Part shown: positions 2,491 through 54,038 of the stretch, one piece after another
How the letters are laid out: each line of letters opens with the position of its first letter
How positions within the stretch are numbered: the stretch's first letter is position 1
DNA from: Tagaea sp.
Lineage (GTDB): Bacteria > Pseudomonadota > Alphaproteobacteria > CACIAM-22H2
NCBI GenBank assembly: GCA_965279525.1
Contig: CBDIIB010000004.1
Coordinates: 416,001-480,000 of the forward strand
DNA: 64,000 bases
Reading direction: 5' to 3'
Notes under the pieces: generated by a model
The model's input: the letters and a program-made list of their open reading frames with translations, nothing else
The model's database searches: none
Told to the model about the DNA's origin: nothing
Translations under genes and position numbers: made by a program

Positions 2491-2531
2491 GAAGATCGAT
2501 TCCGCTTGTGACAGGCTTTATATAGCACCGC

Positions 2532-3317
2532 ATGGACCCGGAAGCGCTCGCCGAAGCCCAGACCCTGCTGCGCCGCCACGACCCCGAACGCTGGCGCACG
2601 ACGCTGTTCGCCCCTGCCGGCCTGCGCGAGCGGCTGGTCGCACTCTATGCCTTCAATGTCGAGATCGCGCGCGTGCGCGAGACCGTATCGGAAGCGCTGC
2701 TCGGGCAGATCCGCCTGCAATGGTGGCGCGAGGCGCTGGCCGAGATCGCCGGCGGCGGCGGCGTGCGCCGACACCCGATCGTGCGCGCGATCGCCGACGC
2801 GAAGCTCGACATGGCCTTGCTGGGCAAGCTGGTCGACGCGCGCGAGCGCGATCTGGACGATACGCCCTTCGCCGATCTTGGCGAACTCGAAGCCCACGCC
2901 GCCGCCACATCGGGCGACCTTGCCGTCGCGGCGGGCGGCGAGGCGTGCCGCAATATCGGCACGGGCTACGGGCTTGCCGGTTCGCTGATCGCGTTGCCCC
3001 ATTTCTCGCGCCAGCGGCGCAACGTGTTGCCCGCGGATCTCGTGGCTGCGGCCGGCCTCACGCCCGAGATCATCCATGAGGGCAAGGCGGGTGCGTTGCT
3101 CGAAGCGGCGGTGATGCCCGTCGCCAAGCGCGCGCGCGAACTGCTGGAGCAGCACCGCGGCGTGCCGAAGCCCGTGGCGCTGCAGGGCACGCTCGCGAAG
3201 CTGTGGCTCGACCGGCTTCAACGCGCGAAGCACGATGCGTTCGCACCCTCGTTGCAGGCGCCGCATCCGGCGGACATCTGGCGGCTGTTCTTCGCCAACC
3301 TATTCGGCCGCTTCTGA
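2532..3317 (+). CDS. Phytoene/squalene synthase-family protein (NDUFAF6-like)
   Basis: [28 protein letters not shown] motifs; adjacent to trmFO. Confidence 0.85.
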
Positions 3318-11972: not shown

Positions 11973-14723
11973 TTGAGCGACCAGATTCCGCCCTCCGTAG
12001 GCCCTACCGACATCTCGCCGGTCTCGATCGAAGACGAGATGAAGCGCAGCTACCTCGATTACGCGATGAGCGTGATCGTGAGCCGCGCTTTGCCGGACGC
12101 ACGCGACGGATTGAAGCCCGTCCACCGCCGCATCCTCTACGCGATGCAGGAAAGCGGCTACGACTGGAACCGCGCCTACCGCAAGTCGGCGCGCATCGTG
12201 GGCGACGTGATGGGCAAGTATCACCCGCACGGCGACAGCGCCATCTACGAGTCCATGGTGCGCATGGCGCAGGACTTCTCGATGCGCCTGCTGATGATCG
12301 ACGGGCAGGGCAATTTCGGCTCGATGGACGGCGATCCGCCGGCGGCCATGCGCTACACCGAAGCGCGCCTGGCCAAGGCCGCGTCGCTGATGCTGACCGA
12401 CATCGACAAGGAAACCGTCGATTTCCAGCCCAACTACGACGACAGCACGGTCGAGCCGACGGTGCTGCCCGCCGTGTTCCCGAACCTGCTGGTCAATGGC
12501 GGCTCGGGCATCGCCGTCGGCATGGCGACGAACATCCCGCCGCATAACCTTGGCGAGATGATCGACGCGTGCGGCGCCTATCTCGACGATCCCGAGATCA
12601 CGCTCGACGATTTGATGAAGCACGTTCCGGGCCCCGACTTCCCCACCGGCGGCATCGTGATGGGCCGCGGTGGCCTGCGCGAGGCCTACCGCACGGGGCG
12701 CGGCTCGATCCTGCTGCGCGGGCGCAGCCACATCGAGGAGCTGCGCAAGGACCGCGAGGCGATCGTCGTCACCGAGATCCCGTACCAGCAGAACAAGGCC
12801 CGGCTGATGGAGCGCATCGCCGAGTGCGTCAACGACAAGATCATCGAGGGCATTTCCGACCTGCGCGACGAATCCGACCGCGACGGCGTGCGCGTGGTGA
12901 TCGAACTGAAGCGCGACGCGAACCCCGAGATCGTGCTGAACCAGCTCTACAAGTACACCGGCCTGCAGACCTCGTTCGGCTACAACATGCTGGCGCTGGA
13001 CCAGGGCAAGCCCGTGCTGATGGGCCTCAAGGAACTGATCCGCTGCTTCGTGGAGTTCCGCGAGGAAGTCATCACGCGGCGCACGCGCTATCTGCTGCGC
13101 GAGGCGCGCAAGCGCGCGCACACGTTGATCGGCCTTGCGGTGTCGGTCGTCAATCTCGACCCGGTGATCGAACTGATCCGCAAGTCGCCCGACCCGGTCG
13201 TGGCGCGCGAGCGCCTGATCGAGCGCGCCTGGCCGGTCGCCGACATCGGCGCCTATATCGAGATGGTCGGCGAACCCGGGCGCAGCGTCGTCGATGGTAC
13301 GTACCGGCTTTCCGAAGAGCAGGCCAAGGCGATCCTGGAACTTCGCCTGCAGCGCCTCACCGGTCTCGAGCGCGACAAGATCCTAGGCGAGCTCAAGGAC
13401 ATCGTCGCCCAGATCGCCGACTTCATCGAGATCCTGGGTTCGCGCGAACGGCTCTACGCGATCCTGCGCGGCGAGCTCGATGCCTACAAGGCCGAGTTCG
13501 CCGACAAGCGCCGCACGACGCTCGAAGAGGGCGACGGCGAGCAGGACATCGAGGACCTGATCCAGCCCGAGGACATGGTCGTCACCGTCACGCATGCCGG
13601 CTACATCAAGCGCACGCCGCTGTCGAGCTACCGCGCCCAGCGCCGCGGCGGCAAGGGCCGCTCGGGCATGGCGACGCGCGAGGAGGATTTCGTCAGCCAG
13701 GTGTTCGTCGCGAACACGCACGCGCCGGTGCTGTTCTTCACGACGCGCGGGCTCGTCTTCCTGCTCAAATGCTACAAGCTGCCGCTCGGCAACCCGCAGA
13801 ACCGCGGCAAGCCGATGGTCCAGCTGCTGCCGCTGGCCGACGGCGAGCGCATCGCGACGGTGCTGGCCCTGCCGACCGACGCCACGCTGTGGGACAAGCT
13901 CCACATCGTGTTCGCGACGTCCGCCGGCAACGTGCGGCGCAACGCGCTGTCGGATTTCACGAACATCATGTCCAAGGGCAAGATCGCCATGAAGCTGGAG
14001 GAGGCGGGCGAACGTCTCGTCGCCGTCCAGCCCTGCCAGGATACGCAAGACGTCGTGCTCGCCACGCGCGAGGGAAAGTGCATCCGCTTCGCGGTCGACG
14101 ACGTGCGCGTCTTCGCCAGCCGCAATTCCACGGGCGTGCGCGGCATCAAGCTCGGCAAGGACGACGAGGTCATCTCGATGGCGCTGCTGCGCCACATGGA
14201 CCTCGAGACGGTCGAACGCGAGGCGTTCCTGCGCATGGCCCGCCAGCGCCGCGGCATGAGCGACGAGGCGGCGGCCGAGACGGCCGAAGCCGAAACGCCG
14301 GAAGCCGTCGCCGGTGCCGCCCTCGTGCTGTCGGAAGAACGCTATGCCGAGCTTGCGGCGGCCGAGGAAGTGCTGCTCGCCATCACGAGCAAGGGCTTCG
14401 GCAAGCGCAGTTCGTCCTACGAATACCGGCTCACCGGCCGCGGCGGCTCGGGCATCGCCAACATCGAGACGACCGACAAGAACGGCGTGGTCGTGGCCTC
14501 GTTCCCGGTGCGCGACGGGGACCAGCTGATGATCGTGTCGGACGGCGGCACGCTGATCCGCACGCCGGTCGATGACATCCGCATCGCGCGCCGCCAGACC
14601 CAGGGCGTGACCGTCTTCCGCGTCGGCGACGGCGAGAAGGTGGTTTCGGTCGCCCGCCTGGGCGATCTTGGCGGCGACGACACCGCCGAAGCGCCGGGGG
14701 CACCGGCCGGGGAGGGAAAATGA
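11973..14723 (+). CDS. gyrA: DNA gyrase subunit A
   Basis: [30 protein letters not shown], GyrA box QRRGGKG. Confidence 0.99.
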
Positions 14724-15358: not shown

Positions 15359-15434
15359 GAGCCCGTAGCTCAATTGGTAGAGCACGACACTTTTAATGTT
15401 GGGGTTCCGGGTTCGAGTCCCGGCGGGCTCACCA
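15359..15434 (+). tRNA. tRNA-Lys (UUU)
   Basis: 76 nt; acceptor stem GAGCCCG/CGGGCTC, anticodon loop CTTTTAA, T-loop TTCGAGT, 3' ACCA. Confidence 0.97.
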
Positions 15435-15451
15435 GCATTTCCGGATGAAGT

Positions 15452-17602
15452 TCATTTCATTTCGGGTGTGTATCGCGGAACCTGCCGGATCCGGCACATC
15501 GGCTCGAACTTCCCTTTGGAAAGCCGTAGCAGGGCCTTTTCAGGCTTTTCGCGCTGGTACGCCCGCCCGCTTGTCAACTCGACGTAGTTGCGCCCGTTAG
15601 CGGCCAGTATTGCGGCATCGGCGCCACCGCATATCCACCATTTCGATTGAAGCTCCAGAAGCGAACTATTGGGCTCTCCTTTGATCATGGAACTCCCTTC
15701 GATCAGCGAAACGCCGGAGTGATCGCATCCGCAGCCGGCGCCACTGAAAATTCCGAAATGGCCGATCCGCCGGACCTGTCCCGGGCTTTCAAATGTGACT
15801 TCGGCATCGCCGTCGAAACTCGCAAAGTCGCGACCCGTTATCGCGTCGACGGTTTCCTGCTGCATGGTCTTTGCGTCCAACTTCCGCCATTTCACGCGCT
15901 GCTCCAGCGTGCCCGCAAGAAACGCGCCGCAAAGCGGCGCGGACAGATTCTCGGCAAGTCGGGCGGTAAAGCTGCGCCGGAAGGTGCAGATCGTGCCGCG
16001 GCCGGGTTCGACGATCTGGCTTGGCCCCTTGTCGATCACGCCGAGGACATAGGACTTGTTCCGGAACGGAACGATCAGGATTTCGTCGGCGTTATATCCG
16101 TCCACGTCATCGGCTTGATAAGCAGCGGGTCCGTCGTCGAACTCATGGAGACCGTCGACCCTGATGTAAGGGTTCGAGCAGGAGCTGCGCGCATATCCGA
16201 CCGAGAACGTCTTTCTCTCGCCGTCTACGATCGCAGCACCTTTCCCTGTTCTAATGAAATTCTGGCCATCGTTGTTGAAGGCATCCGCAACGTAGTCGCA
16301 GACCGACGCGGCCGATTTGACCGCGTTTGGCAGATTGAACGCCGCAAGAGTGGATGCTTTCGGCGCTTCCCTGCCGGAAAGTTCACGGTATCGTGCATAC
16401 TCAACGGAAGCTTCCTGCCACATCGACGCCTTGTCGTCCTCCGACGCCGCGCTGCGCAGCGTATTCTGAAGCGCATCGGCGAGATTGAGATGCGCGACGG
16501 CACGGCCGGGAGACAGTTCGACGACTTTCCGCAGAACGGGAACGGCCTGGTCGGACTTCCTTGACCAGTCGAGCATGTACCCATAGTCGTTCAGGATGCG
16601 GATGCGCATGGCTTCCGAAACATCCGCCATGGGCCCATCCATCAAACGGAGCACACCCGCAGCTTCGAGTGCCCTCGTCGTCGGGCGAGACCCGAAGCTG
16701 CGGATCTCGAGATCCTGGAAGACGGCAAGGGCCTTGGCGTGGGTACGAATCAGGTTTCTGCCGGTGACCGGCCGCGGAAGAGTGGATTGGATCCGGAAAT
16801 GCCCGCGTCGGAGAGTCAGCACGGCGTCGAGCGTAGCAAGTATCCTTGCGGAATCGACATAGGTGTCGGGGCTGAAAGACCGAACGACCTTCCCGTCGCT
16901 CCAGAAATTGAGCGCGCCATCGCTGTCAAAGGACAGCTGGAACGGTCCGAATACGTCGGTGATTGTTTCGTCCCCGTGGTGCGCGTCCGGCAGAAAATAC
17001 CGGAAGAAAGGTGGAAAAGTGCGAGCCGGTGGAGGATCGAAGGATTTCGGCGCAGATGGATCGCCAATGTCCAGGCCCACGCGCGTGCGCTTTTCGCTGT
17101 TTGTGAGAACGATCCTGTTCCCGTCCGGCGAAATTTCCGCGGGCCACGACTTCGACAACTCCGGAATGTCGGAAATTTCCGATATTTTACGGGGCTGGCC
17201 CGGCTTGGTTATGTCGTACACGACGAATGCCGATCCCGTGGGCCGTGACGTGAAGAAGATCAGTCGCTCGCCATGAACGCGCAGCGAGCCGACCCACTGC
17301 TTGCCAAGATCCGTTTCAAATACTTTCCGCGGCACGGCCGGATTGGAAAGATCAAATATCCAGATGCCGGCGGCGTAGTCAGGATCCTCGAGCTTCCTCG
17401 TAGACCAAGCCACGAAAAGAAAGTTCTGATCGGATGTAAGATCGTAACTGACCCGCGAGATTTGGTGATGCGGGATATTGAAATCGACGCTGCCGATGTT
17501 TTTTATGTCTCGAGCCGGGGCACCGTTTGCCGGATTCTGCTGGGCGGGCAGAAAAACAGTCCAGATCAACAGGCAGGCGAAAGTCAATTGACGCATGTTC
17601 AT
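15452..17602 (-). CDS. Secreted multidomain protein: LVIVD-like repeats + TPR + Cys-rich C-terminal region
   Basis: Hydrophobic N-terminus; IWIFDLSNPAVP, VVYDITKPGQP, GLDIGDPSAP repeats; TPR ILNDYGYML...AVAHLNLADAL; visibly less GC-biased than flanks. Confidence 0.75.
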   Translation of the reverse strand: MNMRQLTFACLLIWTVFLPAQQNPANGAPARDIKNIGSVDFNIPHHQISRVSYDLTSDQNFLFVAWSTRKLEDPDYAAGIWIFDLSNPAVPRKVFETDLGKQWVGSLRVHGERLIFFTSRPTGSAFVVYDITKPGQPRKISEISDIPELSKSWPAEISPDGNRIVLTNSEKRTRVGLDIGDPSAPKSFDPPPARTFPPFFRYFLPDAHHGDETITDVFGPFQLSFDSDGALNFWSDGKVVRSFSPDTYVDSARILATLDAVLTLRRGHFRIQSTLPRPVTGRNLIRTHAKALAVFQDLEIRSFGSRPTTRALEAAGVLRLMDGPMADVSEAMRIRILNDYGYMLDWSRKSDQAVPVLRKVVELSPGRAVAHLNLADALQNTLRSAASEDDKASMWQEASVEYARYRELSGREAPKASTLAAFNLPNAVKSAASVCDYVADAFNNDGQNFIRTGKGAAIVDGERKTFSVGYARSSCSNPYIRVDGLHEFDDGPAAYQADDVDGYNADEILIVPFRNKSYVLGVIDKGPSQIVEPGRGTICTFRRSFTARLAENLSAPLCGAFLAGTLEQRVKWRKLDAKTMQQETVDAITGRDFASFDGDAEVTFESPGQVRRIGHFGIFSGAGCGCDHSGVSLIEGSSMIKGEPNSSLLELQSKWWICGGADAAILAANGRNYVELTSGRAYQREKPEKALLRLSKGKFEPMCRIRQVPRYTPEMK

Positions 17603-17892
17603 CTGAGAGCCTCCGTTTACCGGACCGAGCGGAAATAGAATCCGGATCGGCAATGGAAGATTTTAGCAAAATGCCTCTGCTTATCAAAGGATGTGACGGC
17701 GATGGATAAGATGCGGCATCCTGCATTGCAAAGCCTTGCACCCCGAAGGTCGGCGATCTTCTGCGCTGATCGCGCCGAAGGGGCCCAGTCGCGCCGGATT
17801 CGACCACAAAATGCCCGGGGTGAGCCTTGGCACCGACGCCGAGACTGCGGATTCCCACACTGTGACAGGCGGCCGGCGGAGCGGAATCAGAC

Positions 17893-36800: not shown

Positions 36801-37313
36801 CAGCAGATGCTCGAAGACGCCGTGCATGCCGCACGCGTCGCCGGCCCGAAGACGGCGGTCGACGAATGGGCGCCGCAGATCGGCATCGGCACGCCCGTGC
36901 TGATCCCGGACACCTACGTCGAGGATCTCAACGTGCGCCTCGGCCTCTACCGGCGCATCGCCACGCTAGTCGAGCGCGTCGAGATCGACGCGTTCGCCGC
37001 CGAGCTCGTCGACCGCTTCGGCAAGCTGCCGGCCGAAGTGCAGAACCTGCTCGACATCATCGAACTGAAGCGCCTGTGCAAGGCGGCCGGCGTGGACAAG
37101 GTCGATGCCGGGCCCAAGGGGGCCGTCATCGGCTTCCGCAAGAACAAGTTCGCCCAGCCCGAGCGGCTCATCCAGCTCGTGTTCAAGCAGCCGACGGTGC
37201 TGAAGCTGCGCCCCGACCACAAGCTCGTCTATCTGCGCGCGTGGGATGACCCGGCCGACCGGCTGAAGGGCATGCGCAAATTTCTGGGCGAACTGGCCAA
37301 GCTCGTCGCCTAG
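33810..37313 (+). CDS. mfd: Transcription-repair coupling factor
   Basis: FPAWDCLPYDRVSP, HGIGRY, CGDVGFGKTE, DEEQHFG, GNLLGEEQSGH; probable TTG start. Confidence 0.98.
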   Translation: MLKLSFDNRLKAGQRLEVAGAPPGVDAGVLAALLRQGSDVIHVARDDARVSVLAEALAFAGARATVLGFPAWDCLPYDRVSPNGDVVSRRLDALVDLAQPPDAGVGRRIVLTTVNAITQRVPARARFADAVFVARLGGKLRLDELGAFLVRDGYRRSETVREPGEYALRGGIVDLFPPGLSEPVRIDLFGDTIEQIRRFDPMSQKSTGKLDAFALKPVSEVLLDPASIERFRLGYRENFGAVDDRDALYAAVSAGQRYAGLEHWLPLFHDGLETLFDYLPSAVVSLDAQVDEAAAARFEQIDEFFEARKLAREAFRRGQSADKFGETATSYNPLPPDALYLKSKEWTKLLATRAVVALTPFARPVAADCLDAGGRGGIDFSADRAKTDTNLFDAVRARVAAERVAGRRVLVCAYSAGSRERLAHLLHEHGLSETAVVKNVDELEALPDQVVATTVLGLENGFTTDTIAAITEQDVLGDRLVRAARKRRRPENFLTEAAALGEGDLVVHVDHGIGRYDGLVTIDVAGAPHDCLRILYADNDKLFVPVENIEMLSRFGSEEAGAQLDKLGGAGWQARKARVKKRVAEIADQLIKLAAERRMKDGERLAPPDGLFDEFCARFPYVETEDQARAISDTLEDLAAGKPMDRLICGDVGFGKTEVALRAAFVAAMAGVQVAVVVPTTLLARQHFRNFKARFEGFPIRIAQLSRLVNAKDQQQAREDAEAGRVEIVVGTTALLAKSIKFKQLGLVVVDEEQHFGVAQKERLKELRADVHVLTLSATPIPRTLQMALAGVRDLSLIASPPVDRLAVRSFVLPFDPVVIREAIMREKFRGGQVFYVVPRIEDLGAVRDRLQQVVPECKIAIAHGQLAPGQIEDVMVGFVDGSYDIMLSTNIIESGLDIPSANTIIIHRADMFGLAQLYQLRGRVGRAKLRAYAYFTVPGDKVLTAGAQKRLEVMQTLDSLGAGFQLASYDLDIRGAGNLLGEEQSGHIREVGVELYQQMLEDAVHAARVAGPKTAVDEWAPQIGIGTPVLIPDTYVEDLNVRLGLYRRIATLVERVEIDAFAAELVDRFGKLPAEVQNLLDIIELKRLCKAAGVDKVDAGPKGAVIGFRKNKFAQPERLIQLVFKQPTVLKLRPDHKLVYLRAWDDPADRLKGMRKFLGELAKLVA

Positions 37314-37987
37314 CCGCACTTTCCCCAGTCGCGCGCGTAGGCCGCGTTCGTGTCCATCGCGGCGTGCCGGGAATTCGCGGCGGCGAGTGCCCCCTGAAAC
37401 GCATCGCCGATGGGCTTGGCAAGCATCTGCTTGTAGCGTTCGCCGACCACCTGCGGGCTGATGTTCTCGCCCTCCATCGTCGGCAGGGCCGGGATGAAGG
37501 CGGCAAGAACCTGCTCGATGCGCCGCTTGGCATCCTCGATGCAGTCGAGATTGATGCGCGCATGGCGGTTCTCGTGCTCGAGCACCACCTCGCGCCGGCA
37601 GGTCGCGACCTGGGTGGCGTCGCGCGCCACATAGACATGGTGCGCTTCCATGCCGACATCCACCTCGATGCGGGCGGGCTTCATGCAGCTGCGCTTGCCG
37701 TCACGCTTGCCGTTGAGCGTGATCAGCCAGTTGGTCTGGAAATTCGCCGTCGTCAGGCCGGCGGGCCGCTTGCCGTGCTGGGTGAGCGTGCCCTTGGGGC
37801 CGGCGCGCTCGGCCGTGATGCGGGCGAGATCGGCGATGGTCAACGAATAATCGTAGCTCGGCGCCTTCGGGCGCGGACGCACGATGATCGCCGCCTTCTC
37901 CGACGGGCACAGCGGCGACTGCGCTTGCGCATCGCTTGCGGCGAACGCGACGAGCCCGCCCAGGAACGCGCGGCGCGTCAGGCACAC
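37310..37987 (-). CDS. Tat-exported predicted Zn-dependent protease (DUF922-like)
   Basis: TRRAFLG twin-arginine signal, AGLT, HExxH (HENRH). Confidence 0.65.
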   Translation of the reverse strand: MCLTRRAFLGGLVAFAASDAQAQSPLCPSEKAAIIVRPRPKAPSYDYSLTIADLARITAERAGPKGTLTQHGKRPAGLTTANFQTNWLITLNGKRDGKRSCMKPARIEVDVGMEAHHVYVARDATQVATCRREVVLEHENRHARINLDCIEDAKRRIEQVLAAFIPALPTMEGENISPQVVGERYKQMLAKPIGDAFQGALAAANSRHAAMDTNAAYARDWGKCG

Positions 37988-38003
37988 GCAGCCGGACAGG
38001 AGC

Positions 38004-38642
38004 CTACTGGGCGGCGGCACTTTCGCGCACGCGCTGGAACACTTGCGCGAATGTCTCGGGCGGCTGCGCGCCGGAGACCATGAATTTCCGGTCGACGACG
38101 AAGCATGGCACGCCATTGATACCGATCTTGCGCGCGAACGCGTCTTCCTCGCGGATCAGTTCGTCGTCCTCGTCCGACACGAGGTAGGCGCGCACGGAAG
38201 CCGCGTCGAGGCCGCAGCCGGCCGCCACGTCGACCAGCACGTCGACATCGCCAACGTCGAGCGCCTTGACGAAATAGGCGAGGAACAGTGCTTCGACGAC
38301 CGCATCCTGTTGGCCGGCACGCTCGGCGAAACGGTTGAGCCGGTGGGCGCGCACCGTGTTGGGCGTGCGCTGCATGCGGTCGAACGCGAAGGGGATGCCT
38401 TCTTCGAGACCGGCGGCGATCACGTGTTGGTAGCGGTTGCCGCCGTCGGAATCGCCGAACTTGGCGCGCAGATAGTCTTTTCGCGACATGCCGTCGGCCG
38501 GCATTTCCGGATTGAGCTGGAACGGCCGCCAGCCCACCTCGACGCTGCCCGGCGGCTCGGCGGCGAGCGCTCGTTCCAGCCGGCGTTTGCCGATATAGCA
38601 CCACGGGCAGATCACGTCGGAGACGATGTCGATCTTGATCAT
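38004..38642 (-). CDS. DsbA/FrnE-family oxidoreductase
   Basis: SDVICPWCYIG, PFQLNP, GVP, SGAQP. Confidence 0.93.
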   Translation of the reverse strand: MIKIDIVSDVICPWCYIGKRRLERALAAEPPGSVEVGWRPFQLNPEMPADGMSRKDYLRAKFGDSDGGNRYQHVIAAGLEEGIPFAFDRMQRTPNTVRAHRLNRFAERAGQQDAVVEALFLAYFVKALDVGDVDVLVDVAAGCGLDAASVRAYLVSDEDDELIREEDAFARKIGINGVPCFVVDRKFMVSGAQPPETFAQVFQRVRESAAAQ

Positions 38643-38667
38643 CGGCCGAATCCTAGCATCTGGAGCG

Positions 38668-38696
38668 TTGACGGGGTAGCGCGGTCTGCCGACAAT
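38668..38696 (+). promoter_or_regulatory. Putative sigma-70 promoter of the lva-like operon
   Basis: TTGACG-N17-GACAAT, followed by GGAGG RBS and TTG start at 38726. Confidence 0.55.
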
Positions 38697-38725
38697 CGTA
38701 TGTCGTCAGTCCGGGAGGAAATGAC

Positions 38726-40384
38726 TTGGCCGCCAGACGAAAAACCAAACGCACCGTCGCGTCGATGTACGAGGCCGACCTCGGCAAGGTCGCGGCGAAC
38801 CACGAGCCGCTGACGCCGATCTCGTTCCTGTTCCGCTCGGCCGCGGTCTATCCGCGCAAGGTCGCGGTCGTGCACGGGCGCGCGCGACATACCTACGCGC
38901 AGTTCGCCGCGCGCGTGCGCCGGTTCGCGGACGCGCTGGTCAAGAACGGCCTGAAGCGCGGCGAGACCGTCGCGGTGATGGCGCCCAACGTGCCGGCGAT
39001 GCTGGCGGCGCACTATGCCGTGCCGCTCGCCGGTGGCGTTCTCAACGCGCTGAACTATCGGCTCGACGCGGCGACGATCGCCTTCATCCTCGAACACGGG
39101 GCCGCCAAGATCCTGCTGGTCGACCGCGAGTTCGCGCCCACGGTCCAGGCGGCACTGGAGAAGGTGAAGAAGAAGCCGCTCGTGATCGACATCGACGACC
39201 GCGAATACAAGGGCGAGGGCCCGCGCCTGAGTGCGGTCGAGTACGAGGAATTCCTCAAGCAGGGGCGCCCGGACTATGAGGGCCGCTGGCCGACCGACGA
39301 ATGGCAGGCGATCTGCCTGCTCTACACGTCCGGCACCACGGGCGATCCCAAGGGCGTCGTCTACCATCACCGCGGCGCCTATCTCAACGCGCTGGGCAAC
39401 GCGCTGGCCTTCGGCGTGCGGCCCGACAGCGTCTATCTGTGGACGCTGCCGATGTTCCACTGCTCGGGCTGGAGCTATACGTGGGCGGTCACGGCGGTCG
39501 GCGGCACGCATGTCTGCCTGCGCCGCGTCGATCCGGCCCTCATCTTTCCGTCGATCCGCGACAATGGCGTGACGCACATGTGCGGGGCACCCATCGTGCT
39601 CAACACGCTGGCCCATGCACCCGCCGACGTGAAGCTTGCCTTGCCGCACCGGGTCGAGGTGATGACCGGCGGTGCCGCCCCGCCGTCGGCGATCATCGCG
39701 TCGATGGAGGCGATGGGTTTCCGCGTCACGCACGCCTACGGCCTGACCGAAAGCTACGGCCCCGCGACCTTGTGCGAGTGGCAGCCGGGCTGGCCCGACC
39801 TGCCCGTCGACGAGCGTGCAAGACTGATGGCGCGCCAGGGCGTGGGCTATCCCACGCTGGGCGCACTTGCGGTGCTCGACGCGAAGTCGAAGCCGGTCCC
39901 CGCCGACGGGCAGACGATGGGCGAGATCGCACTTCGCGGCAACACGGTGATGAAGGGCTATCTCAAGAACCCGAAGGCGACGCGCAAGGCGTTCAAGGGC
40001 GGCTGGTTCCGCACCGGCGATCTCGCCGTCCGACACCAGGACGGATACATCGAGGTCAAGGACCGCTCGAAGGACGTGATCATTTCCGGTGGCGAGAATA
40101 TTTCTTCCCTCGAGGTCGAGGAGGCGCTCTACCGGCACCCGGCCGTCATGGAAGCAGCCGTCGTCGCCAAGCCGGACGAGAAATGGGGCGAAACGCCCTG
40201 CGCCTTCATCACGCTGAAGCCCGGCGTGACGGGCATCAGCGGTGCGGAGATGATCGACTGGCTGCGCGGGCGCATCGCGCGGTACAAGTGTCCGCGCCAC
40301 GTCGTGTTCGGCGCGCTGCCCAAGACGTCGACCGGCAAGATCCAGAAATACGCGCTGCGCGCGCGGGCAAGGGAGATCGTTTGA
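38726..40384 (+). CDS. Acyl-CoA synthetase (LvaE-like)
   Basis: ANHEPLTPISFL, YTSGTTGDPKGVVYHHRGAYLNA, YLWTLPMFHC, LPKTSTGKIQK. Confidence 0.93.
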   Translation: MAARRKTKRTVASMYEADLGKVAANHEPLTPISFLFRSAAVYPRKVAVVHGRARHTYAQFAARVRRFADALVKNGLKRGETVAVMAPNVPAMLAAHYAVPLAGGVLNALNYRLDAATIAFILEHGAAKILLVDREFAPTVQAALEKVKKKPLVIDIDDREYKGEGPRLSAVEYEEFLKQGRPDYEGRWPTDEWQAICLLYTSGTTGDPKGVVYHHRGAYLNALGNALAFGVRPDSVYLWTLPMFHCSGWSYTWAVTAVGGTHVCLRRVDPALIFPSIRDNGVTHMCGAPIVLNTLAHAPADVKLALPHRVEVMTGGAAPPSAIIASMEAMGFRVTHAYGLTESYGPATLCEWQPGWPDLPVDERARLMARQGVGYPTLGALAVLDAKSKPVPADGQTMGEIALRGNTVMKGYLKNPKATRKAFKGGWFRTGDLAVRHQDGYIEVKDRSKDVIISGGENISSLEVEEALYRHPAVMEAAVVAKPDEKWGETPCAFITLKPGVTGISGAEMIDWLRGRIARYKCPRHVVFGALPKTSTGKIQKYALRARAREIV

Positions 40385-41148
40385 GTTCCATCTTCGACCT
40401 CGCCGGCAAGGTCGCCCTCGTGACGGGGGCCTCGTCCGGTCTCGGCCGCCACATGGCGCTGACGCTCGCGCGGGCAGGGGCCCGCGTGGCGCTTGCCGCC
40501 CGCCGGGTCGACCGGCTGGAAGAACTCGCCGCCGAGATCGCCGCCTTCGACGGCCGCGCCCTTCCCGTTGCGATGGACGTGACCGACAGTGCCAGCGTCA
40601 CGCGCGCGATCGCGGAAGCCGAAACCGAACTTGGCGGGCTTGCCATCTGCGTCAACAACGCCGGCATCGCGCTGAAGGAGGACCTCGCCGACATCGACGA
40701 TCCGGCTTGGGCGCAGACGATGGCGACCAACCTCGACGGCGCCAACCGCGTGGCGCGCGCGGCCGCCGCCGCGATGGTCGCGCACGGGCATGGCGGGTCG
40801 ATCGTCAACATCGCGTCGATCCTGGGGCTGCGCACCAGCGTCCGCGTTCCAGCCTATGCGGCGGCGAAGGCAGCAATCATCAGCCTGACGCAGACCATGG
40901 CGCTGGGCCATGCGAAATCCGGCATCCGCGTCAACGCGATCGCGCCCGGCTACATCGAGACCGATCTCAATCGCGCCTATCTGCAGACGCCCGCCGGTGC
41001 CAAGATGGTCGCGCGCGTGGCGCTGGCACGATTCGGCCAGCCGGCCGATCTCGACGGCGCGCTCCTGCTTCTCGCCTCGGACGCCGGACGCTACATGACG
41101 GGCACGACTCTCGTCGTCGACGGCGGCCATACCCTCGCTTTCCTCTGA
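40381..41148 (+). CDS. Short-chain dehydrogenase/reductase (LvaD-like position)
   Basis: TGASSGLG, NNAG, YAAAK, NAIAPG; TTGA overlap. Confidence 0.92.
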   Translation: MSSIFDLAGKVALVTGASSGLGRHMALTLARAGARVALAARRVDRLEELAAEIAAFDGRALPVAMDVTDSASVTRAIAEAETELGGLAICVNNAGIALKEDLADIDDPAWAQTMATNLDGANRVARAAAAAMVAHGHGGSIVNIASILGLRTSVRVPAYAAAKAAIISLTQTMALGHAKSGIRVNAIAPGYIETDLNRAYLQTPAGAKMVARVALARFGQPADLDGALLLLASDAGRYMTGTTLVVDGGHTLAFL

Positions 41149-41162
41149 ACGGAGACCCCACG

Positions 41163-41807
41163 ATGATCGTCGACGTCCGCACCTACACCGCATTTCCGGG
41201 CAAACTGCCGGCCTATTTCGCCGAGTATCCTGTGGAGGCGTTCGACGTGCAGAAGCGCCATCTGGGCGCGCCGCTGGGCTACTATCATGTCGACGTCGGT
41301 ACGGTGAACACGCTCATCCACATCTGGGGCTACAAGGACATCGCCGACCGCCAGGCGCGCCGCGACGCGATGGCCGCCGATCCGGCGTGGAAGGCGTGGC
41401 TCGCCCAGGGGCAGGGCCGCTTCGCGTCGCAGGAAAACCGGATCATGAAGCCGGCACCTTTCTGGCCGATGCCGGGCCAGCCTTCGGGCAGCTACGGGCT
41501 TGTCGACTATCGCCTCTACACCACGTTCCACGGCAAGGCGCCGGAGTTCATGAAGGTCTACGAGACCAAGGGCCTCGCGACCCAACTCAAGCATCTGGGC
41601 AATTGCGTGGGCTGGTATCAGGCGGACATCGGCGGACTCAACCAGGTCCTGCACATGTGGGGTTACAAGGACGCGGCGGACCGCCAGACGCGCCGCGCCG
41701 CGATGGCGGCCGATCCCGCATGGGGCGAATACCTGAAGGCCGCCACGCCGCTGCTGGCTCGGATGGAAACCCAGCTGCTGCTCAACGCGCCCTTCTTCAA
41801 GCCGTAA
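41163..41807 (+). CDS. Tandem two-domain NIPSNAP protein
   Basis: Two ~100-aa repeats: RTY...HIWGYKDIADRQARRDAMAADPAW and RLY...HMWGYKDAADRQTRRAAMAADPAW. Confidence 0.9.
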   Translation: MIVDVRTYTAFPGKLPAYFAEYPVEAFDVQKRHLGAPLGYYHVDVGTVNTLIHIWGYKDIADRQARRDAMAADPAWKAWLAQGQGRFASQENRIMKPAPFWPMPGQPSGSYGLVDYRLYTTFHGKAPEFMKVYETKGLATQLKHLGNCVGWYQADIGGLNQVLHMWGYKDAADRQTRRAAMAADPAWGEYLKAATPLLARMETQLLLNAPFFKP

Positions 41808-41819
41808 CGGAAACAACCG

Positions 41820-43016
41820 ATGGATTTCAAACTTTCGCCCGCCGTCGAGAAGACGCGCAGCGCCGTGCGCGATTTCGTCGACCGCGAACTGATCCCGCTC
41901 GAGGCGCACGACATCAACTGGGGTGACGGCGAGAACGTGCGCCTCGACCTTCTGCAGAAGCTTCGCGCCAAGGCGAAGAAGGCGAAGCTCTGGTCGCTGC
42001 AGATGCCCAAATCGATGGGCGGCGGCGGCCTCGACACGGTCGGCATGGCCGCCTGCTACGAGGAGATGGGCCGGGCGCTGTTCGGGCCGGTCGTGTTCAA
42101 CAGTGCCGCCCCCGACGACGGCAACATGATGATCCTGGGCAAGGTCGCGACGGCAGTCCAGCGCCGGAAGTGGCTTGCACCGATCGTCGAGGGCAAGGTG
42201 CGCTCGTCCTTCGCGATGACCGAGCCGCATCCGGGTTCGGGTTCCGATCCCGGCATGATGCTGACCACGGCCACGAAGAAGCGCGGCAAGTGGACGGTCA
42301 AGGGTCGCAAATGGTTCATCACCGGGGCCGGCGAAGCCAAGCACTTCATCCTGATCGCGCGCACGTCGGATGATGCGCGCAAGGGCCTCAGCGCCTTCAT
42401 GTTCCATGCCGACCAGCCGGGCTGGCGCATCGTGCGCCGCATCCCGATCATGGGGCCGGAGGAACATGGCGGACACTGCGAGATCGAATTCGACGGGCTG
42501 GAAATCGACGATGCCGACCGGCTGATGGAAATCGGCGACGGCCTGAAGCTGACGCAGATCCGGCTGGGGACGGCGCGCCTCACGCACTGCATGCGCTGGC
42601 TCGGCATGGCGCGCCGCGCGATGGAAATCGCGTTGCCCTATGTCGAGACGCGCAAGAGCTTCGGCAAGAAACTGATCGACCGCGAGGGCGTGCAGTGGCT
42701 GCTGGGCGAGGCCGCGATGCAGATCGAGATCGGCCGGCTTTTGACGATGCGCGCGGCCTGGAAGCTCGACCAGGGCGATTTCGCGCGCAAGGAAGTGTCG
42801 ATGGCGAAGGTTGCCGTCGCCGACGTGCTGCACAAGGCGGTCGATACCGCGATCCAGCTGCTGGGCGCGCGCGGCTATTCGAAGGACGAGCCGCTCGAAT
42901 GGATGTACCGCTACGCGCGTCAGGCAAGGCTGGTCGACGGCGCTTCGGAAGTCCACAAAATGGTGCTCGCCCGCTTCCTTGCGCAGGAGCGCACGGAGTT
43001 CTGGGCGTGGCGCTGA
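41820..43016 (+). CDS. Acyl-CoA dehydrogenase, LvaC/ACAD10-11 type
   Basis: APDDGNM, RSSFAMTEPHPGSGSDP, GRKWFITGA, ARLTHCMRWLG, DGASEVH. Confidence 0.93.
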   Translation: MDFKLSPAVEKTRSAVRDFVDRELIPLEAHDINWGDGENVRLDLLQKLRAKAKKAKLWSLQMPKSMGGGGLDTVGMAACYEEMGRALFGPVVFNSAAPDDGNMMILGKVATAVQRRKWLAPIVEGKVRSSFAMTEPHPGSGSDPGMMLTTATKKRGKWTVKGRKWFITGAGEAKHFILIARTSDDARKGLSAFMFHADQPGWRIVRRIPIMGPEEHGGHCEIEFDGLEIDDADRLMEIGDGLKLTQIRLGTARLTHCMRWLGMARRAMEIALPYVETRKSFGKKLIDREGVQWLLGEAAMQIEIGRLLTMRAAWKLDQGDFARKEVSMAKVAVADVLHKAVDTAIQLLGARGYSKDEPLEWMYRYARQARLVDGASEVHKMVLARFLAQERTEFWAWR

Positions 43017-44344
43017 GACCGGACGCCCCGCCGCCCGCACTCGCCGGCTGGCTGATCGGCACGCTCGCGGCCGAACAGGTCCAGATCACGGCATGGCGCA
43101 AGCTGTCGGGCGGGGCGATCCAGGAGAACTGGGCCTTCACCGCGCGCATCCGCGGCGGCAGCCATGCCGGCACGCTGGAAGCCGTCCTGCGCACCGACGC
43201 GCCCACCGGCGTTGCGGTCAGCCTTGGCCGCGCGGAGGAATTCGAGATCCTGTCGGCCGCCCACGGAGCCGGCGTGCGCGTGCCCGAACCGCTTGGTCTG
43301 TGCGCGGATGCCGCCGTGCTCGGCAAGCCTTTCTATGTGATGCGGCGCGTCGAAGGGACGGCACTTGGCCACGTGCTGGCGAACGACGCCAAATGGACCG
43401 GCGACCGCGTGGCGCTGGCCGAAACACTCGGCGGCGAGCTTGCGAAGATACATACGATCCGCCCGCCGCGCGCCGACCTTTCGTTCCTGCCTGTCCCCGA
43501 CGGCAAGCCGGCATTCGCGGCGATCTCCGGCTATCGCGCCTGGCTCGACGGATACCGCATGCCGCGACCGGCACTCGAACTGGGGCTGCGCTGGCTCGAA
43601 CTGAATGCGCCGGCGCGCCGCACCGTCGTGCTGTGCCACCGCGACTTCCGCACCGGCAATTACATGGCCGACGAAAACGGCCTGACCGGCATCCTCGACT
43701 GGGAGTTTGCCGGCTGGGGCGATCCCGATGAGGACATCGGCTGGTTCTGCGCCAAGTGCTGGCGCTTCGGACAGGTCGCGCGCGAGGCGGGCGGCATCGG
43801 GGCCCGCGCTGATTTCCTGCGCGGCTATACGAAGGTGGCCGGCCGCGCGATCGACCCGGCCGCGATCCGCTACTGGGAGATCATGGCCCACGCGCGTTGG
43901 GCGGTGATCGCCCTCCAGCAGGGAGAGCGGTTCGTGGGCGGCGGCGAGATGTCGCTGGACCTGGCACTCACCGGCCGGCGGATCGCCGAGCTCGAGTACG
44001 AACTTCTTGCCGCGATCGATGCGGCATCCGCACCCGGTCCTTTGCCGTCCGGGCTGCCCGTCGACCGGCCGGATGCCGGCGAGCTTGCGTCTCTCGCCGC
44101 ACATGTCTTTGCCCGTGAATTGCTGCCCGCACTGGGCGATGACCGGCGGCTGCAGGGGCTGATGCTGGCAAGCGCGCTGGGCACCGTCGCACGCGGGAAC
44201 GCGGCACCGGCAGAGGCGGCCGACCGTTCGCTCGTCGGCGCGATCCGCGCCGGCCGGCATGACAGGGATGCGGGCCTGCATGGCGCGTTGCGCGAGGAAG
44301 CCCGCGCACGCACCCGGATCGCCAACCCCAAATATCCGTTCTGA
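43007..44344 (+). CDS. APH-family phosphotransferase (LvaA-like) fused to an LvaB-like C-terminal domain
   Basis: LSGGAIQENW, HRDFRTGN, LDWEFAGWGDP, RWAVIALQQG; after a linker, DRPDAGEL...ELLPAL...AIRAG...IANPKY. Confidence 0.88.
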   Translation: MALRPDAPPPALAGWLIGTLAAEQVQITAWRKLSGGAIQENWAFTARIRGGSHAGTLEAVLRTDAPTGVAVSLGRAEEFEILSAAHGAGVRVPEPLGLCADAAVLGKPFYVMRRVEGTALGHVLANDAKWTGDRVALAETLGGELAKIHTIRPPRADLSFLPVPDGKPAFAAISGYRAWLDGYRMPRPALELGLRWLELNAPARRTVVLCHRDFRTGNYMADENGLTGILDWEFAGWGDPDEDIGWFCAKCWRFGQVAREAGGIGARADFLRGYTKVAGRAIDPAAIRYWEIMAHARWAVIALQQGERFVGGGEMSLDLALTGRRIAELEYELLAAIDAASAPGPLPSGLPVDRPDAGELASLAAHVFARELLPALGDDRRLQGLMLASALGTVARGNAAPAEAADRSLVGAIRAGRHDRDAGLHGALREEARARTRIANPKYPF

Positions 44345-45487
44345 CTACCAGCCGTTGACGCGGTCCCAGACGGCGACGATCTCGTCGTTGCCGTCGACCA
44401 CGTGGTAACGCGGGTACATCGCCGACGTCATGCAGACGTGGTTGGGCATCACGAGCACGCGCCTGCCGACCGGCCAGTCGGCAAAGGGCAGGGGATCGAT
44501 GGCATCCAGCCCGCGCCGCGCCGACAGGATGCCGTGCTCCTGATGGACGTCGAGCACGGCGAGATCCTCGCGCGGGCACGCCTGCCCGGGATCGCGGATC
44601 AATCCGTAGCCGACATTGTCGATGCGCCGGTTGGCGCCGGTGTCCTTGGACAGCGCCAGAGCACCGGCGTCGAGCAGCAGATGGTTGCGCCCGCGATGAT
44701 GCCCGATGACCGAGGCGAGCACCCCGACCGCGATGTCCTCGGCCCCGCACATGCCCAGCCCGTGCTGGAAAAGATCGAAGAACACGAAGTTTCCGGGGCG
44801 CATCTCGGTCACGCCCCGCAGATGGCGCGCATGCAGGGCCGTTGGGGTGGAGCCAACGCTGACATGATCGAACGCATGGCCCTTGGTGCGCAGGAACTCG
44901 GCTGCCTCGACCACGCCGGCCCGCTCGGCTTCGGCCACGTCCTCGATCTCGGCGATCCCGTCGCAACCATAGGAATGGCCAGCATGCGCCATCACGCCCG
45001 CGAGCATGCCTGCGGGGCCGAGGGCGGCCGCGATGGCGGCAAGCTCCGGCGAGCGCGGATCGACGCCGGCCCGCCCGCCGCCGGTCTCGATTTCGACGAC
45101 CGCAGCGAAGCGCACGCCGAGGGCCGCGCCACGCGCGACGATGGCGCGCGCGGCGTCGACATCGTCGGTCAGGATCTTGAGGGCAGGGGCCGCGCGCATG
45201 AGTCCGGCGACCCGGTCGAGCTTGGCGGGCGCGATCGCGACCGCGTAGAGCATGTCGGTGAAGCCGGCCTTGGCGAAATACTCGCCCTCGGCGAGCGTCG
45301 AGACGGTGATCGGCCCCGGCTGCCCGCCATGGACGGCCAGGGCGACTTCGGCGGACTTCGCCGTCTTCATGTGCGGGCGCAGCGTCACGCCCAGTTCCTT
45401 CGCACGTGCCTGCATGCGCGCCACGTTGCGCATCAGCCGCGAACGGTCGAGGACGAGGGACGGGGTCGGGAGATCGGCCAGACGCAT
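44345..45487 (-). CDS. Fold-type III PLP enzyme (D-threonine aldolase / DSD1 family)
   Basis: RPHMKTAK, HAGHSY, GSTPT, HQEHG, PNHVC. Confidence 0.9.
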   Translation of the reverse strand: MRLADLPTPSLVLDRSRLMRNVARMQARAKELGVTLRPHMKTAKSAEVALAVHGGQPGPITVSTLAEGEYFAKAGFTDMLYAVAIAPAKLDRVAGLMRAAPALKILTDDVDAARAIVARGAALGVRFAAVVEIETGGGRAGVDPRSPELAAIAAALGPAGMLAGVMAHAGHSYGCDGIAEIEDVAEAERAGVVEAAEFLRTKGHAFDHVSVGSTPTALHARHLRGVTEMRPGNFVFFDLFQHGLGMCGAEDIAVGVLASVIGHHRGRNHLLLDAGALALSKDTGANRRIDNVGYGLIRDPGQACPREDLAVLDVHQEHGILSARRGLDAIDPLPFADWPVGRRVLVMPNHVCMTSAMYPRYHVVDGNDEIVAVWDRVNGW

Positions 45488-52560: not shown

Positions 52561-53232
52561 TCAGTCGTGCCCACTTTCACCCGCTACGGCACGCCAGTCG
52601 CGCAGCATCGCGGCGTCGGGCTTCCGGTTCCAGAAATCGACGCGCACCGACGACGGCGACGCAAGGCTGATTCCGCAGCACGATCCTGTCGCCACACCGA
52701 GCTTGGCGCCGGCGACTGCGGCAGAGAACCACGCGGCATCCAGTTTCGCGAAATAGCGCAGGATCCCCTGTGAACTGCAGAGTACGGGCACGATGCGGCC
52801 GTCGCCGGCGGCAAGCTCGCGCACGAGCTCGCCGGCACCGCGCTCCAGCGTGTCGGGATCCGGCGACCAGCCCTGGCCGACCGGCCACACACAGCGGCGG
52901 TTCCAGGCTTCGAGTGTATCGGCGCCGGCGGTCGCGGCGATGTCGGCGTCCGTCCGGCCTTCCCAAGTTCCATAGTCAATTTCGCGCAGGCTGTCCTCGA
53001 TGCGCGGGACGAAGCCGAAGCCGTGCGTGACGAAGGCGCGCGTGCGCTGGAGAGGCCCCGCCAGAAACGGCCCGGCGGCCATGCCGGAACCGCGCACCGC
53101 TTCGGCGAAAGTCGTGGCCTGTGCGAAGCCCTTGGCCGTCAGCGGAATGTCCGAGCGCGAACCGACGCGCACGACCGGGGCGCCGTCCTCGAACGTGTTG
53201 CCGTGTCGCACGAGAAGGACGCGGCGCATCAC
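52561..53232 (-). CDS. Histidine phosphatase (phosphoglycerate mutase-like) family
   Basis: LVRHGNT, PLQRT, LREIDYGTWEG. Confidence 0.88.
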   Translation of the reverse strand: MMRRVLLVRHGNTFEDGAPVVRVGSRSDIPLTAKGFAQATTFAEAVRGSGMAAGPFLAGPLQRTRAFVTHGFGFVPRIEDSLREIDYGTWEGRTDADIAATAGADTLEAWNRRCVWPVGQGWSPDPDTLERGAGELVRELAAGDGRIVPVLCSSQGILRYFAKLDAAWFSAAVAGAKLGVATGSCCGISLASPSSVRVDFWNRKPDAAMLRDWRAVAGESGHD

Positions 53233-54038
53233 GCGACCCGCGCACTTCCGTCGTAGGCCGGCAGCAGTTCACCCTCGCGCGCGAGGATCGCCTCGGCCTC
53301 GACGAGATCGGCAGGGCTGTCGATCGACCAGTGGGTGCGTCCGCGATAGTCGCATTGCACGACCCGCATCCGGATGCCGTTCTCCAGTGCCCGAAGCTGC
53401 TCGAGCTCCTCGGCCTGCTCGAAGGGGCCGATCGGCAGCGTCACGTATTCCGAAAGTGTCTCGGGACGGAACGCATAGATTCCGATGTGCCGGAAGATCG
53501 GCAGCTCGCCTCCGGGCTTCTTGACGAACGGGATCAGGCTTTTCGAAAAATAGAGCGCGTCGCCGTTGCGGTCGAACGTGACCGTGGTGCCGCCAGCCTG
53601 GCCGCCTTCCTTCTGGCGCTTCAGCGCCGCGAACGCGTCGGGTGCCATGCGCGTGGCAAGCGTGCCGATGCGGATCGCAGGGTCTGCGGCCATGGCACCG
53701 GCAAGCGCGCCGATCACCCAGGGCGGCGTAAGGACGGCATCCCCCTGCAGGTTGATGATCGCCGTCTCGCGCGCGCCCAGCGCCTCGACCGCGGCGAACG
53801 TGCGCTCGGTGCCGTTGCGGCAGCTCTCCGGCGTCATCACCGCTTCGCCGCCGAAGGCGCGCACCGCGTCGGCAATGCGCGCATCGTCGGTCGCCACGAC
53901 CGTGCGCGACACGCCGTCGGCCGCGCGCGCGATCGCCCAGACGCGCTGGATCATCGCGATGCCGCCGACCTTGGCGAGCGGCTTGCCGGGGAAACGCGAC
54001 GAGGCGTAGCGCGCCGGGATGACGACAAGCGCGCTCAT
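53229..54038 (-). CDS. kdsB: KdsB-like cytidylyltransferase (CMP-Kdo synthetase family)
   Basis: IPARYASSRFPGKPL, VATDD, NGTER, NLQGD, ALYFSK, RHIGIYAF, EQAEELEQLRALENG. Confidence 0.85.
   Translation of the reverse strand: MSALVVIPARYASSRFPGKPLAKVGGIAMIQRVWAIARAADGVSRTVVATDDARIADAVRAFGGEAVMTPESCRNGTERTFAAVEALGARETAIINLQGDAVLTPPWVIGALAGAMAADPAIRIGTLATRMAPDAFAALKRQKEGGQAGGTTVTFDRNGDALYFSKSLIPFVKKPGGELPIFRHIGIYAFRPETLSEYVTLPIGPFEQAEELEQLRALENGIRMRVVQCDYRGRTHWSIDSPADLVEAEAILAREGELLPAYDGSARVA

Follow-up and report, generated by a model that had tools for sequence, protein, structure and literature searches.

A putative lva-type operon with a fused LvaA-LvaB-like kinase and a tandem NIPSNAP gene in Tagaea

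Levulinate and 4-hydroxyvalerate are the model substrates of the lva-type pathway. In the accessible part of PMC6692424 the Pseudomonas genes for it are laid out as lvaR/lvaABCDEFG, and Rand et al. 2017 are cited there as having noted lvaABCD homologs in Alpha-, Beta- and Gammaproteobacteria. The mammalian proteins ACAD10 and ACAD11 follow the same two-step logic, in which a 4-hydroxyacyl-CoA is phosphorylated and the phosphate then eliminated in an acyl-CoA dehydrogenase (ACAD) domain that contains flavin adenine dinucleotide. According to the available text of Rashan et al. 2025 (PMC12440821), the hallmarks of ACAD10/11 and LvaC are a catalytic Asp, an HCMR motif (H634, R637) and an upstream Arg (R626); R626 together with the HCMR motif binds the 4-phosphate in ACAD11, substitutions of R626, H634 and R637 ablate turnover by the ACAD domain while the 4-phosphoacyl-CoA intermediate builds up, and conservation of these three residues is described as limited to ACAD10/11 and LvaC. 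Here we describe a 64-kb window of Tagaea sp. (the whole stretch of DNA analysed: contig CBDIIB010000004.1, positions 416,001 to 480,000; G+C about 67%), in which five genes probably constitute a chromosomal lva-type operon that would feed 4-oxo/4-hydroxy carboxylic acids into beta-oxidation. This would extend the levulinate/4-hydroxy-acid pathway to the Tagaea-like Rhodospirillales lineage. Because lvaABCD homologs were already reported, in Alphaproteobacteria among others, the operon would be a variant of a known pathway rather than a new kind of system; the variant layout proposed in a first-pass annotation of this DNA stands, but its novelty is smaller than was assumed there.

The gene set and its Pseudomonas counterparts

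The five genes are co-directional on the + strand between 38726 and 44344, with neighbouring genes overlapping by up to 10 nt or separated by at most 14 nt (Table 1). The first-pass annotation had read them as tightly coupled, and all five were recovered at the same positions with Pfam domains that agree. The synthetase gene starts at a TTG with GGGAGG 7 nt upstream; in its orthologs the N-terminus MAA(K/R)R is retained, and the start codon is TTG, GTG or ATG. The gene for the short-chain dehydrogenase/reductase (SDR) also starts at a TTG, within a TTGA that overlaps the synthetase stop; gaps of 14 and 12 nt then precede the NIPSNAP and ACAD genes, respectively, and the kinase-fusion gene starts at a GTG in a 10-nt overlap with the ACAD gene.

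Table 1. Positions of the operon genes, the kinase domains and adjoining features in the window
Feature	Position	Strand	Properties
LvaE-like short/medium-chain acyl-CoA synthetase	38726-40384	+	552 aa, AMP-binding and AMP-binding_C
LvaD-like SDR	40381-41148	+	255 aa, adh_short
Tandem (2x) NIPSNAP protein	41163-41807	+	214 aa, PF07978 in two stretches
ACAD10/11/LvaC-type ACAD, type I clade	41820-43016	+	398 aa, three ACAD domains
APH and DUF6285 kinase fusion	43007-44344	+	445 aa
LvaA-like kinase domain of the fusion, residues 1 to about 345	43007-44041	+	APH
LvaB-like DUF6285 domain of the fusion, residues about 346-445	44042-44344	+	in frame with the kinase
Sigma-70-like promoter candidate TTGACG-N17-GACAAT	38668-38696	+	9/12 consensus positions, 83-bp divergent intergenic region
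DsbA-like thioredoxin-fold gene	38004-38642	-	212 aa, PF01323 3.5e-44; divergent from the synthetase gene, same promoter region
Convergent D-serine-dehydratase-like gene	44345 to about 45520	-	3' neighbour of the operon

As a reference we used the operon copy on the P. aeruginosa plasmid p12939-PER (L001), which was located by a kinase tblastn search against plasmids and stands in for that of P. putida KT2440. It carries a divergent gene for a prpR-like sigma-54 regulator, followed by genes for a phosphotransferase, LvaB (labelled '4-hydroxypentanoyl-CoA kinase subunit LvaB' in RefSeq), an ACAD, an SDR, an acyl-CoA synthetase, a DUF485 protein and a cation/acetate symporter (ActP), an arrangement that matches the published layout as given in PMC6692424. 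By BLASTP, the window synthetase is 57% identical to the stand-in LvaE over 535 aa, the SDR 51% to LvaD over 252 aa, the kinase 51% to LvaA over 332 aa, and the ACAD 42% to LvaC over 395 aa. Each of the five Lva functions claimed in the first-pass annotation thus has a counterpart, with LvaB represented by DUF6285; the homology is near full length for E, D, A and C, and the ACAD lies outside the Pseudomonas LvaC clade. The motifs named there were recovered as well, LSGGAIQENW and RWAVIALQQG being identical in the stand-in LvaA, and APDxGN and ARLTHCMRWLG being found in the stand-in LvaC. At the level of family models, the synthetase (Pfam AMP-binding, 1e-78) scores 857 bits on NCBIfam NF006020 (cutoff 677) against 856 for the stand-in LvaE, and the SDR (adh_short, 6.5e-56) and the stand-in LvaD have the same two top models, NF005402 followed by NF005559, the latter (cutoff 215) reaching 216 and 213 bits, respectively. 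NCBIfam holds no model naming LvaA, LvaB or LvaC, and neither the Pseudomonas nor the window versions of these reach any of its cutoffs.

Species-representative genomes were scanned once with an alignment of 26 kinase homologs, which gave 586 relatives, and the best 80 of these 586 are what we refer to as the 80 related loci. Gene orders around the kinase were assigned by tblastn with the window proteins and the stand-ins, where E, D, A and B denote the Lva-like genes, N is NIPSNAP, C1 and C2 are type I and type II ACADs (see below), and H is a histidine phosphatase. The most frequent order was E-D-N-C1-A-B (13 loci), followed by C2-D-A-B (10), D-C1-A-B (9), D-A-B (7), C2-A-B-H and E-D-C1-A-B (6 each), C2-A-B (5) and E-D-A-B (4), with rarer orders in the remaining 20. 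The co-occurrence of synthetase, SDR, HCMR-motif ACAD, kinase and DUF6285 in so many orders favours the reading as an lva-type operon, and since the identical E-D-N-C-A-B order recurs in 13 of the 80 loci, its adjacency in the window is not due to chance. This order was found only in Rhodospirillales-like genomes. The closest loci are those of Tagaea sp. and of Rhodospirillales metagenome-assembled genomes; in one of them (L062), Mfd and the ACAD are 94% and 93% identical.

An HCMR-motif ACAD was missing within the searched span in 16 of the 80 kinase loci, some of which are cut by contig ends. Such loci (L022, L024, L026, L059, L066, L052 and others) keep the kinase and DUF6285, and often E and D; the next gene is ribBA in L059, L066 and L052, and encodes a family III CoA-transferase in L024. 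Either these genomes encode their ACAD elsewhere, or the phosphate is removed by another enzyme. In eight of the 80 loci (L017, L018, L019, L021, L029, L037, L049 and L056), DUF6285 is followed by a histidine phosphatase gene, which never occurs together with NIPSNAP among the 80. On an Azospirillum plasmid (L002:9400-10113) such a gene likewise lies 3' of DUF6285, and the same is reported for P. citronellolis. In ACAD10, a haloacid dehalogenase (HAD) phosphatase domain restrains the kinase, as stated in the accessible text of PMC11342911, and a histidine phosphatase near DUF6285 may, by analogy, parallel this domain.

The kinase protein matches Pfam APH (the aminoglycoside phosphotransferase family) at 8e-38 and DUF6285 at 30.4 bits, and its C-terminal 104 aa alone reach 34 bits on the latter (cutoff 28.1). 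The "extra domain" noticed behind the kinase in the first-pass annotation is therefore real, and because the stand-alone LvaB is itself a DUF6285 protein (4.8e-24 for the stand-in) and aligns with it, we read it as an in-frame, fused LvaB. Their alignment runs through the blocks LLPAL..R...LM.A.A, AIR.G.HD and AR..I.NPK and has an internal gap of some 20 residues when set against LvaB; the stand-alone DUF6285 protein of Azospirillum, which also aligns by shared blocks, is 33% identical to the window domain (E 8e-9). On the kinase side, HRDFRTGN and LDWEF align with the catalytic loop and the metal-binding Asp of ACAD11, and the catalytic Asp and Asn with its D220 and N225. An AlphaFold2 model of the fusion has a mean predicted local distance difference test (pLDDT) score of 85 and a predicted TM-score of 0.84, with a four-helix C-terminal domain at pLDDT 80-97. 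A literature search on DUF6285 found no paper.

Besides the window, nine of the 80 loci have A and B in a single open reading frame (ORF): six of the Tagaea clade, two Dongiaceae and L081. This distribution needs at least three changes on the kinase tree. Such repeated fusion agrees with the pull-down of LvaA with LvaB that the available text of PMC6692424 attributes to Rand et al., and a natural fusion that arose at least three times would be independent genomic support for LvaB as a true subunit of the kinase. As a separate observation, a 549-codon ORF (longest reading) at L052:7902-9551 has Pfam APH over residues 85-304, and DUF6285 was not detected in the roughly 245 residues beyond.

ACAD lineages, substrates and the NIPSNAP protein

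The window ACAD carries an R-x4-R-x2-HCMR motif and the catalytic Asp. Its segment RLGTARLTHCMR aligns column for column with RLGPGRIHHCMR of ACAD11 (R626/R631/H634/R637), and RLVDGASEVH aligns with RLADGPDEVH of ACAD11, in which D753 replaces the usual Glu; the stand-in LvaC keeps this Asp as well (RIYDGPSEVH). Among kinase-adjacent ACADs of the related loci, the motif RL..ARLTHCMR is present in 64 of 64, and a strict catalytic-Asp pattern in 61 of 64. The top matches in the PDB are 4hr3 (226 bits) and mouse and human ACAD11 (211-214 bits), while the best conventional ACAD reaches 171 bits, so that the margin is modest. Against ACAD11, the stand-in LvaC reaches 193-199 bits, and the window ACAD is therefore at least as ACAD11-like as the Pseudomonas enzyme. 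It should be noted that these scores of the stand-in disagree with the identities of 62% and 56% between LvaC and the ACAD domains found in ACAD10 and ACAD11 stated in the accessible part of PMC11342911.

We built trees of 65 kinase-adjacent ACADs and of 83 kinases, both from quick searches and with midpoint roots, from which no direction of change is claimed. The ACAD tree splits into two groups, with connecting branches of 2.0 and 2.2 substitutions per site and a support of 100 in the Shimodaira-Hasegawa-like approximate likelihood ratio test (SH-aLRT). Type I comprises 38 mostly alphaproteobacterial members, including the window ACAD, to which they are 63-93% identical; type II comprises 27 mostly beta- and gammaproteobacterial members at 38-42% identity to it, among them the stand-in LvaC and the ACADs of chromosomal Pseudomonas, Aromatoleum and Limnobacter loci. 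At 42% identity and within the type I clade, the window ACAD is thus no ortholog of the LvaC clade that has been characterised, although it keeps every residue that has been tied to the reaction. The kinase tree has no comparable split, its deepest branches being 0.03-0.04 long with a support of 86. As one kinase family is paired with two ACAD lineages, these trees suggest that the ACAD was exchanged within the cluster. Type I offers a second, uncharacterised clade of HCMR-motif ACADs in which phosphate elimination can be probed.

By homology with the Lva proteins, the pathway would run as follows. The LvaE-like synthetase would turn a 4-oxo or 4-hydroxy acid into its acyl-CoA thioester, and the LvaD-like SDR would reduce 4-oxoacyl-CoA to 4-hydroxyacyl-CoA, the 4-hydroxyl of which would be phosphorylated by the fused LvaA-LvaB kinase. 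The HCMR-motif ACAD would then eliminate the phosphate from the 4-phosphoacyl-CoA, yielding a 2-enoyl-CoA for ordinary beta-oxidation.

But which acids would enter this route? It is possible, if on balance not what we would expect, that the operon runs this chemistry on physiological substrates other than levulinate, namely longer or different 4-hydroxy/4-oxo acids, for example acids derived from gamma-lactones, products of lipid peroxidation or 4-hydroxyalkanoates, as with animal ACAD10/11. The ACAD falls outside the clade of the LvaC that was characterised on levulinate, and LvaR and LvaF/G, which link the Pseudomonas operon to the sensing and uptake of levulinate, are absent. Furthermore, the ACAD11 pocket is described as taking much longer chains in the available text of PMC12440821, and the operon lies in a housekeeping region by mfd and recG rather than in a catabolic island. 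On the other hand, the synthetase shares 57% identity and an equal NF006020 score with the stand-in LvaE, and LvaE is reported active on C4-C6 acids (PMC6692424, accessible part); the LvaD-like reductase also argues for a 4-oxo substrate such as levulinate.

The gene between the reductase and the ACAD sets this operon further apart, so what could its product do? The NIPSNAP protein matches PF07978 at 171 bits (cutoff 22.3; 6.9e-51), and its AlphaFold2 model (pLDDT 91.9) consists of two ferredoxin-like halves that form a two-lobed alpha+beta barrel, with a TMt of 0.94 to single-domain NIPSNAP structures. The tandem form (214-226 aa) is a small family, with 36 clusters at 39% identity or more in a large protein set. 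At the position between D and C1 it occurs in 13 of the 80 loci (46-78% identity), namely in all 13 of the E-D-N-C1-A-B order, and these loci and the window lie in one 17-member kinase clade (support 99), 14 members of which have NIPSNAP. Sequence and fold searches of the PDB returned only uncharacterised NIPSNAPs and generic alpha+beta-barrel enzymes or tandem alpha+beta-barrel proteins, with no biochemical function in the solved entries; an Atlas search returned NIPSNAP clusters only, and plasmid matches were single-domain, with listed co-annotations unrelated to a levulinate-type pathway. A literature search found no paper on NIPSNAP and levulinate; for NIPSNAP and ACAD10 it gave 12, and none of the ten listed links the two in its title or abstract start, gene lists aside. 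Separately, locus L052 has a 32%-identical tandem NIPSNAP on the opposite strand (13597-14157), about 4.6 kb downstream of the kinase match.

Since NIPSNAP is conserved in this lineage yet not universal, its product most likely serves as an accessory and is not one of the core enzymes. Mitochondrial NIPSNAP members and ACAD10 occupy the same compartment. We would only tentatively propose, and rather doubt, that tandem NIPSNAP is a dedicated component of the 4-hydroxyacyl-CoA phosphorylation-elimination pathway, acting for instance on an intermediate that lies between reductase and type I ACAD, or helping this ACAD itself; were it so, the NIPSNAP family would gain its first biochemical context. 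In either case, the conserved mid-operon gene is a testable lead for a family without known biochemistry, and the most interesting loose end of the operon.

Could the type I ACAD, and with it the cluster, catalyse a reaction other than that of LvaC, for instance an ordinary alpha,beta-dehydrogenation or an elimination from another phospho-intermediate, with NIPSNAP supplying a missing step? The depth of the type I/type II split (SH-aLRT 100), the confinement of NIPSNAP to type I (13 of 38 loci, as opposed to none of 26 type II loci), and the fact that no characterised type I enzyme was found in the literature searched would fit such a reaction. We consider it unlikely, however, as the phosphate-binding R/R/HCMR residues are identical and the catalytic Asp is kept in both clades, type I scores at least as high as the stand-in LvaC against ACAD11, the partner kinases constitute a single family that lacks a corresponding deep split, and 25 type I loci do without NIPSNAP. 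That a generic fatty-acid beta-oxidation cluster has by chance come to lie beside an aminoglycoside or other antibiotic phosphotransferase is highly improbable, even though homologs are named 'aminoglycoside phosphotransferase (APT) family kinase protein' and the kinase fold search lists many APH resistance enzymes, for the kinase reaches just 26.1 bits on the APH(3') resistance model NF033068 APH_3p (cutoff 205) and stays far under the cutoffs of other kinase models, the nearest solved folds of the fusion are 25-hydroxysteroid kinase and the unannotated APH-fold proteins Rv3168 and Reut_A1007 with antibiotic kinases ranking lower, and the kinase shares 51% identity with an LvaA homolog, is fused to LvaB, and is encoded by a gene that overlaps that of an HCMR-motif ACAD by 10 nt. 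Automatic annotation names the operon in this form as 'aminoglycoside phosphotransferase' plus generic beta-oxidation genes.

Several points weigh against our preferred interpretation as an lva-type operon. The ACAD is just 42% identical to the stand-in LvaC and about 4.2 substitutions per site away from that clade, the DUF6285 match is partial, with BLASTP against the Pseudomonas LvaB alone not significant at 1e-3, and the SDR matches a generic family, remaining (as does LvaD) under the cutoff of its best NCBIfam model, NF005402. The reference operon is moreover a plasmid stand-in (p12939-PER) and not that of KT2440, and one promoter-like match in 6.4 kb is at chance level (0.7 +/- 0.8 in shuffles). 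As neither LvaF/G nor a regulator is encoded nearby, induction by levulinate cannot be argued from the sequence. Kinases of this family may also act on other substrates: a 2026 preprint, in its accessible part, assigns ether-lipid (alkylglycerol) salvage to ACAD10, which requires both the kinase and the phosphatase activities of that protein. Finally, homology is what we infer the reactions of the window proteins, and of any type I ACAD, from, and the same applies to levulinate, as opposed to other 4-oxo/4-hydroxy acids, as the putative substrate, and to any presumed role of NIPSNAP or the DsbA-like neighbour in the pathway.

Promoter region and neighbouring genes

The TTGACG-N17-GACAAT site proposed in the first-pass annotation is indeed present, and is the sole sigma-70-like match in 38300-44700. 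A TTGAC-N17/18-nAnAAT site is kept in the six closest orthologous loci; in the alignment of these intergenic regions with that of the window, the TTGACG and C.A.AAT columns are invariant against a mean column identity of 59%. More distant orthologs have TTGAC and an A/T-rich hexamer at similar spacing, as judged by visual inspection of unaligned sequences. Just upstream, between the DsbA-like gene and the -35 hexamer, there is a second invariant box, TA.CA.C, which may serve that divergent gene. An imperfect inverted repeat over the promoter (TTGACGG...CCGACAA) was considered as an operator and rejected, since it is not conserved in L003, L004, L006 and L078.

That the operon goes without LvaR also held: tblastn with the LvaR, LvaF and LvaG stand-ins (E <= 1e-3) found no homologs of these in the 64-kb window, nor was a TetR homolog found there, and no transcription factor gene adjoins the operon. 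There is no -24/-12 (sigma-54) site in the intergenic region (38643-38725), and the search for such sites gave 18 matches where 22.7 were expected, all of them outside it. Among the 80 loci, an LvaR-like gene lies near the kinase in one, and an Azospirillum-like TetR gene in two. From the sequence, it is therefore plausible that the operon is transcribed in sigma-70 fashion and without a local regulator: transcription would probably start from the conserved promoter-like site, common with the divergent DsbA-like gene, with any regulator encoded elsewhere. The fused kinase and the sigma-70-type layout without a regulator may offer convenient parts for the bioconversion of levulinate. At the other end, the TGA stop of the operon directly abuts the stop of the convergent gene (44342-44347 junction), with zero intergenic bases and thus no room for a terminator; no intrinsic terminator was found after the operon, and terminator-like matches were not above chance.

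A homolog of the DsbA-like gene (49-88% identity) is found in 22 related loci; in the 19 with an extracted junction it lies beside the synthetase gene in divergent orientation. However, mfd is often adjacent to it, and plain chromosomal synteny is an equally good explanation as a functional link. Between mfd and the DsbA-like gene lies a secreted-looking ORF (37310-38116, -) that carries a Tat-like RRAFLGGL signal and is matched by no Pfam family, and which is kept in five Tagaea-clade loci at 42-70% identity; mfd and recG lie beyond these two genes, upstream of the operon.

Elsewhere in the window, a histidine phosphatase superfamily gene (52564-53268, -) lies 8-10 kb downstream of the operon, in a region that also holds a second, unrelated APH-family kinase ORF (54038 to about 55000, -), which has no tblastn match to the LvaA-like domain at 1e-3. 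A tRNA-Lys gene (15359-15434) is followed by the stretch of lowest G+C in the window (58%, 16-18 kb), inside which lies a 732-aa ORF without a Pfam match (15452-17650, -); this stretch (15359-17650) may be a small acquired island. Two neighbouring squalene/phytoene synthase family genes (PF00494) lie in divergent orientation at 1681-3314.

Comparison with known systems

The closest characterised system is the P. putida lvaABCDE(FG) operon (Rand et al. 2017), compared here via p12939-PER, which has DUF6285, the HCMR motif, the catalytic Asp and the kinase motifs in common with the window. The gene order differs, being E-D-NIPSNAP-C-AB instead of A-B-C-D-E-F-G, and the window fuses LvaA and LvaB in one polypeptide where Pseudomonas has them separate. 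Furthermore, the window operon has the tandem NIPSNAP gene as an extra and an ACAD from a deep sister clade of LvaC, and it has a candidate sigma-70-like promoter in place of the sigma-54 activator LvaR, while also lacking the DUF485/ActP pair. Another lva variant is the cluster of Pseudomonas citronellolis LA18T, which, as described in the accessible part of PMC6692424, combines LvaA, LvaC and LvaD homologs and a divergent synthetase with a histidine phosphatase gene, an LvaR homolog and an ActP transporter, and is without lvaB. Unlike that cluster, the window has a fused LvaB and NIPSNAP, and none of these last three genes in the cluster.

Nearer in its ACAD is the plasmid cluster of Azospirillum ramasamyi (L002), which encodes TetR, SDR, ACAD, APH, DUF6285 and histidine phosphatase. 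It resembles the window in its D-C-A-B order, its type I ACAD (68% identity by BLASTP), SDR (56%), kinase (51%) and DUF6285 (33%). Its A and B genes are separate, B is followed by a gene for histidine phosphatase, and a TetR gene lies in divergent orientation, none of which applies to the operon in the window. Conversely, the Azospirillum cluster is without NIPSNAP and without a co-directional synthetase, a fatty acyl-CoA synthetase being encoded about 5 kb upstream on the opposite strand.

In comparison with mammalian ACAD10/11, the domains are joined differently, the kinase being fused to LvaB in the window and to the ACAD in the mammalian proteins, and the window version has no HAD domain. 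The similarity of the kinase to ACAD11 is weak (41 bits), and the window ACAD is a distant relative of ACAD11 and not an ortholog. At the level of individual residues, however, the equivalents of R626/R631/H634/R637, the catalytic Asp and the catalytic loop of the kinase all align between ACAD11 and the window proteins.

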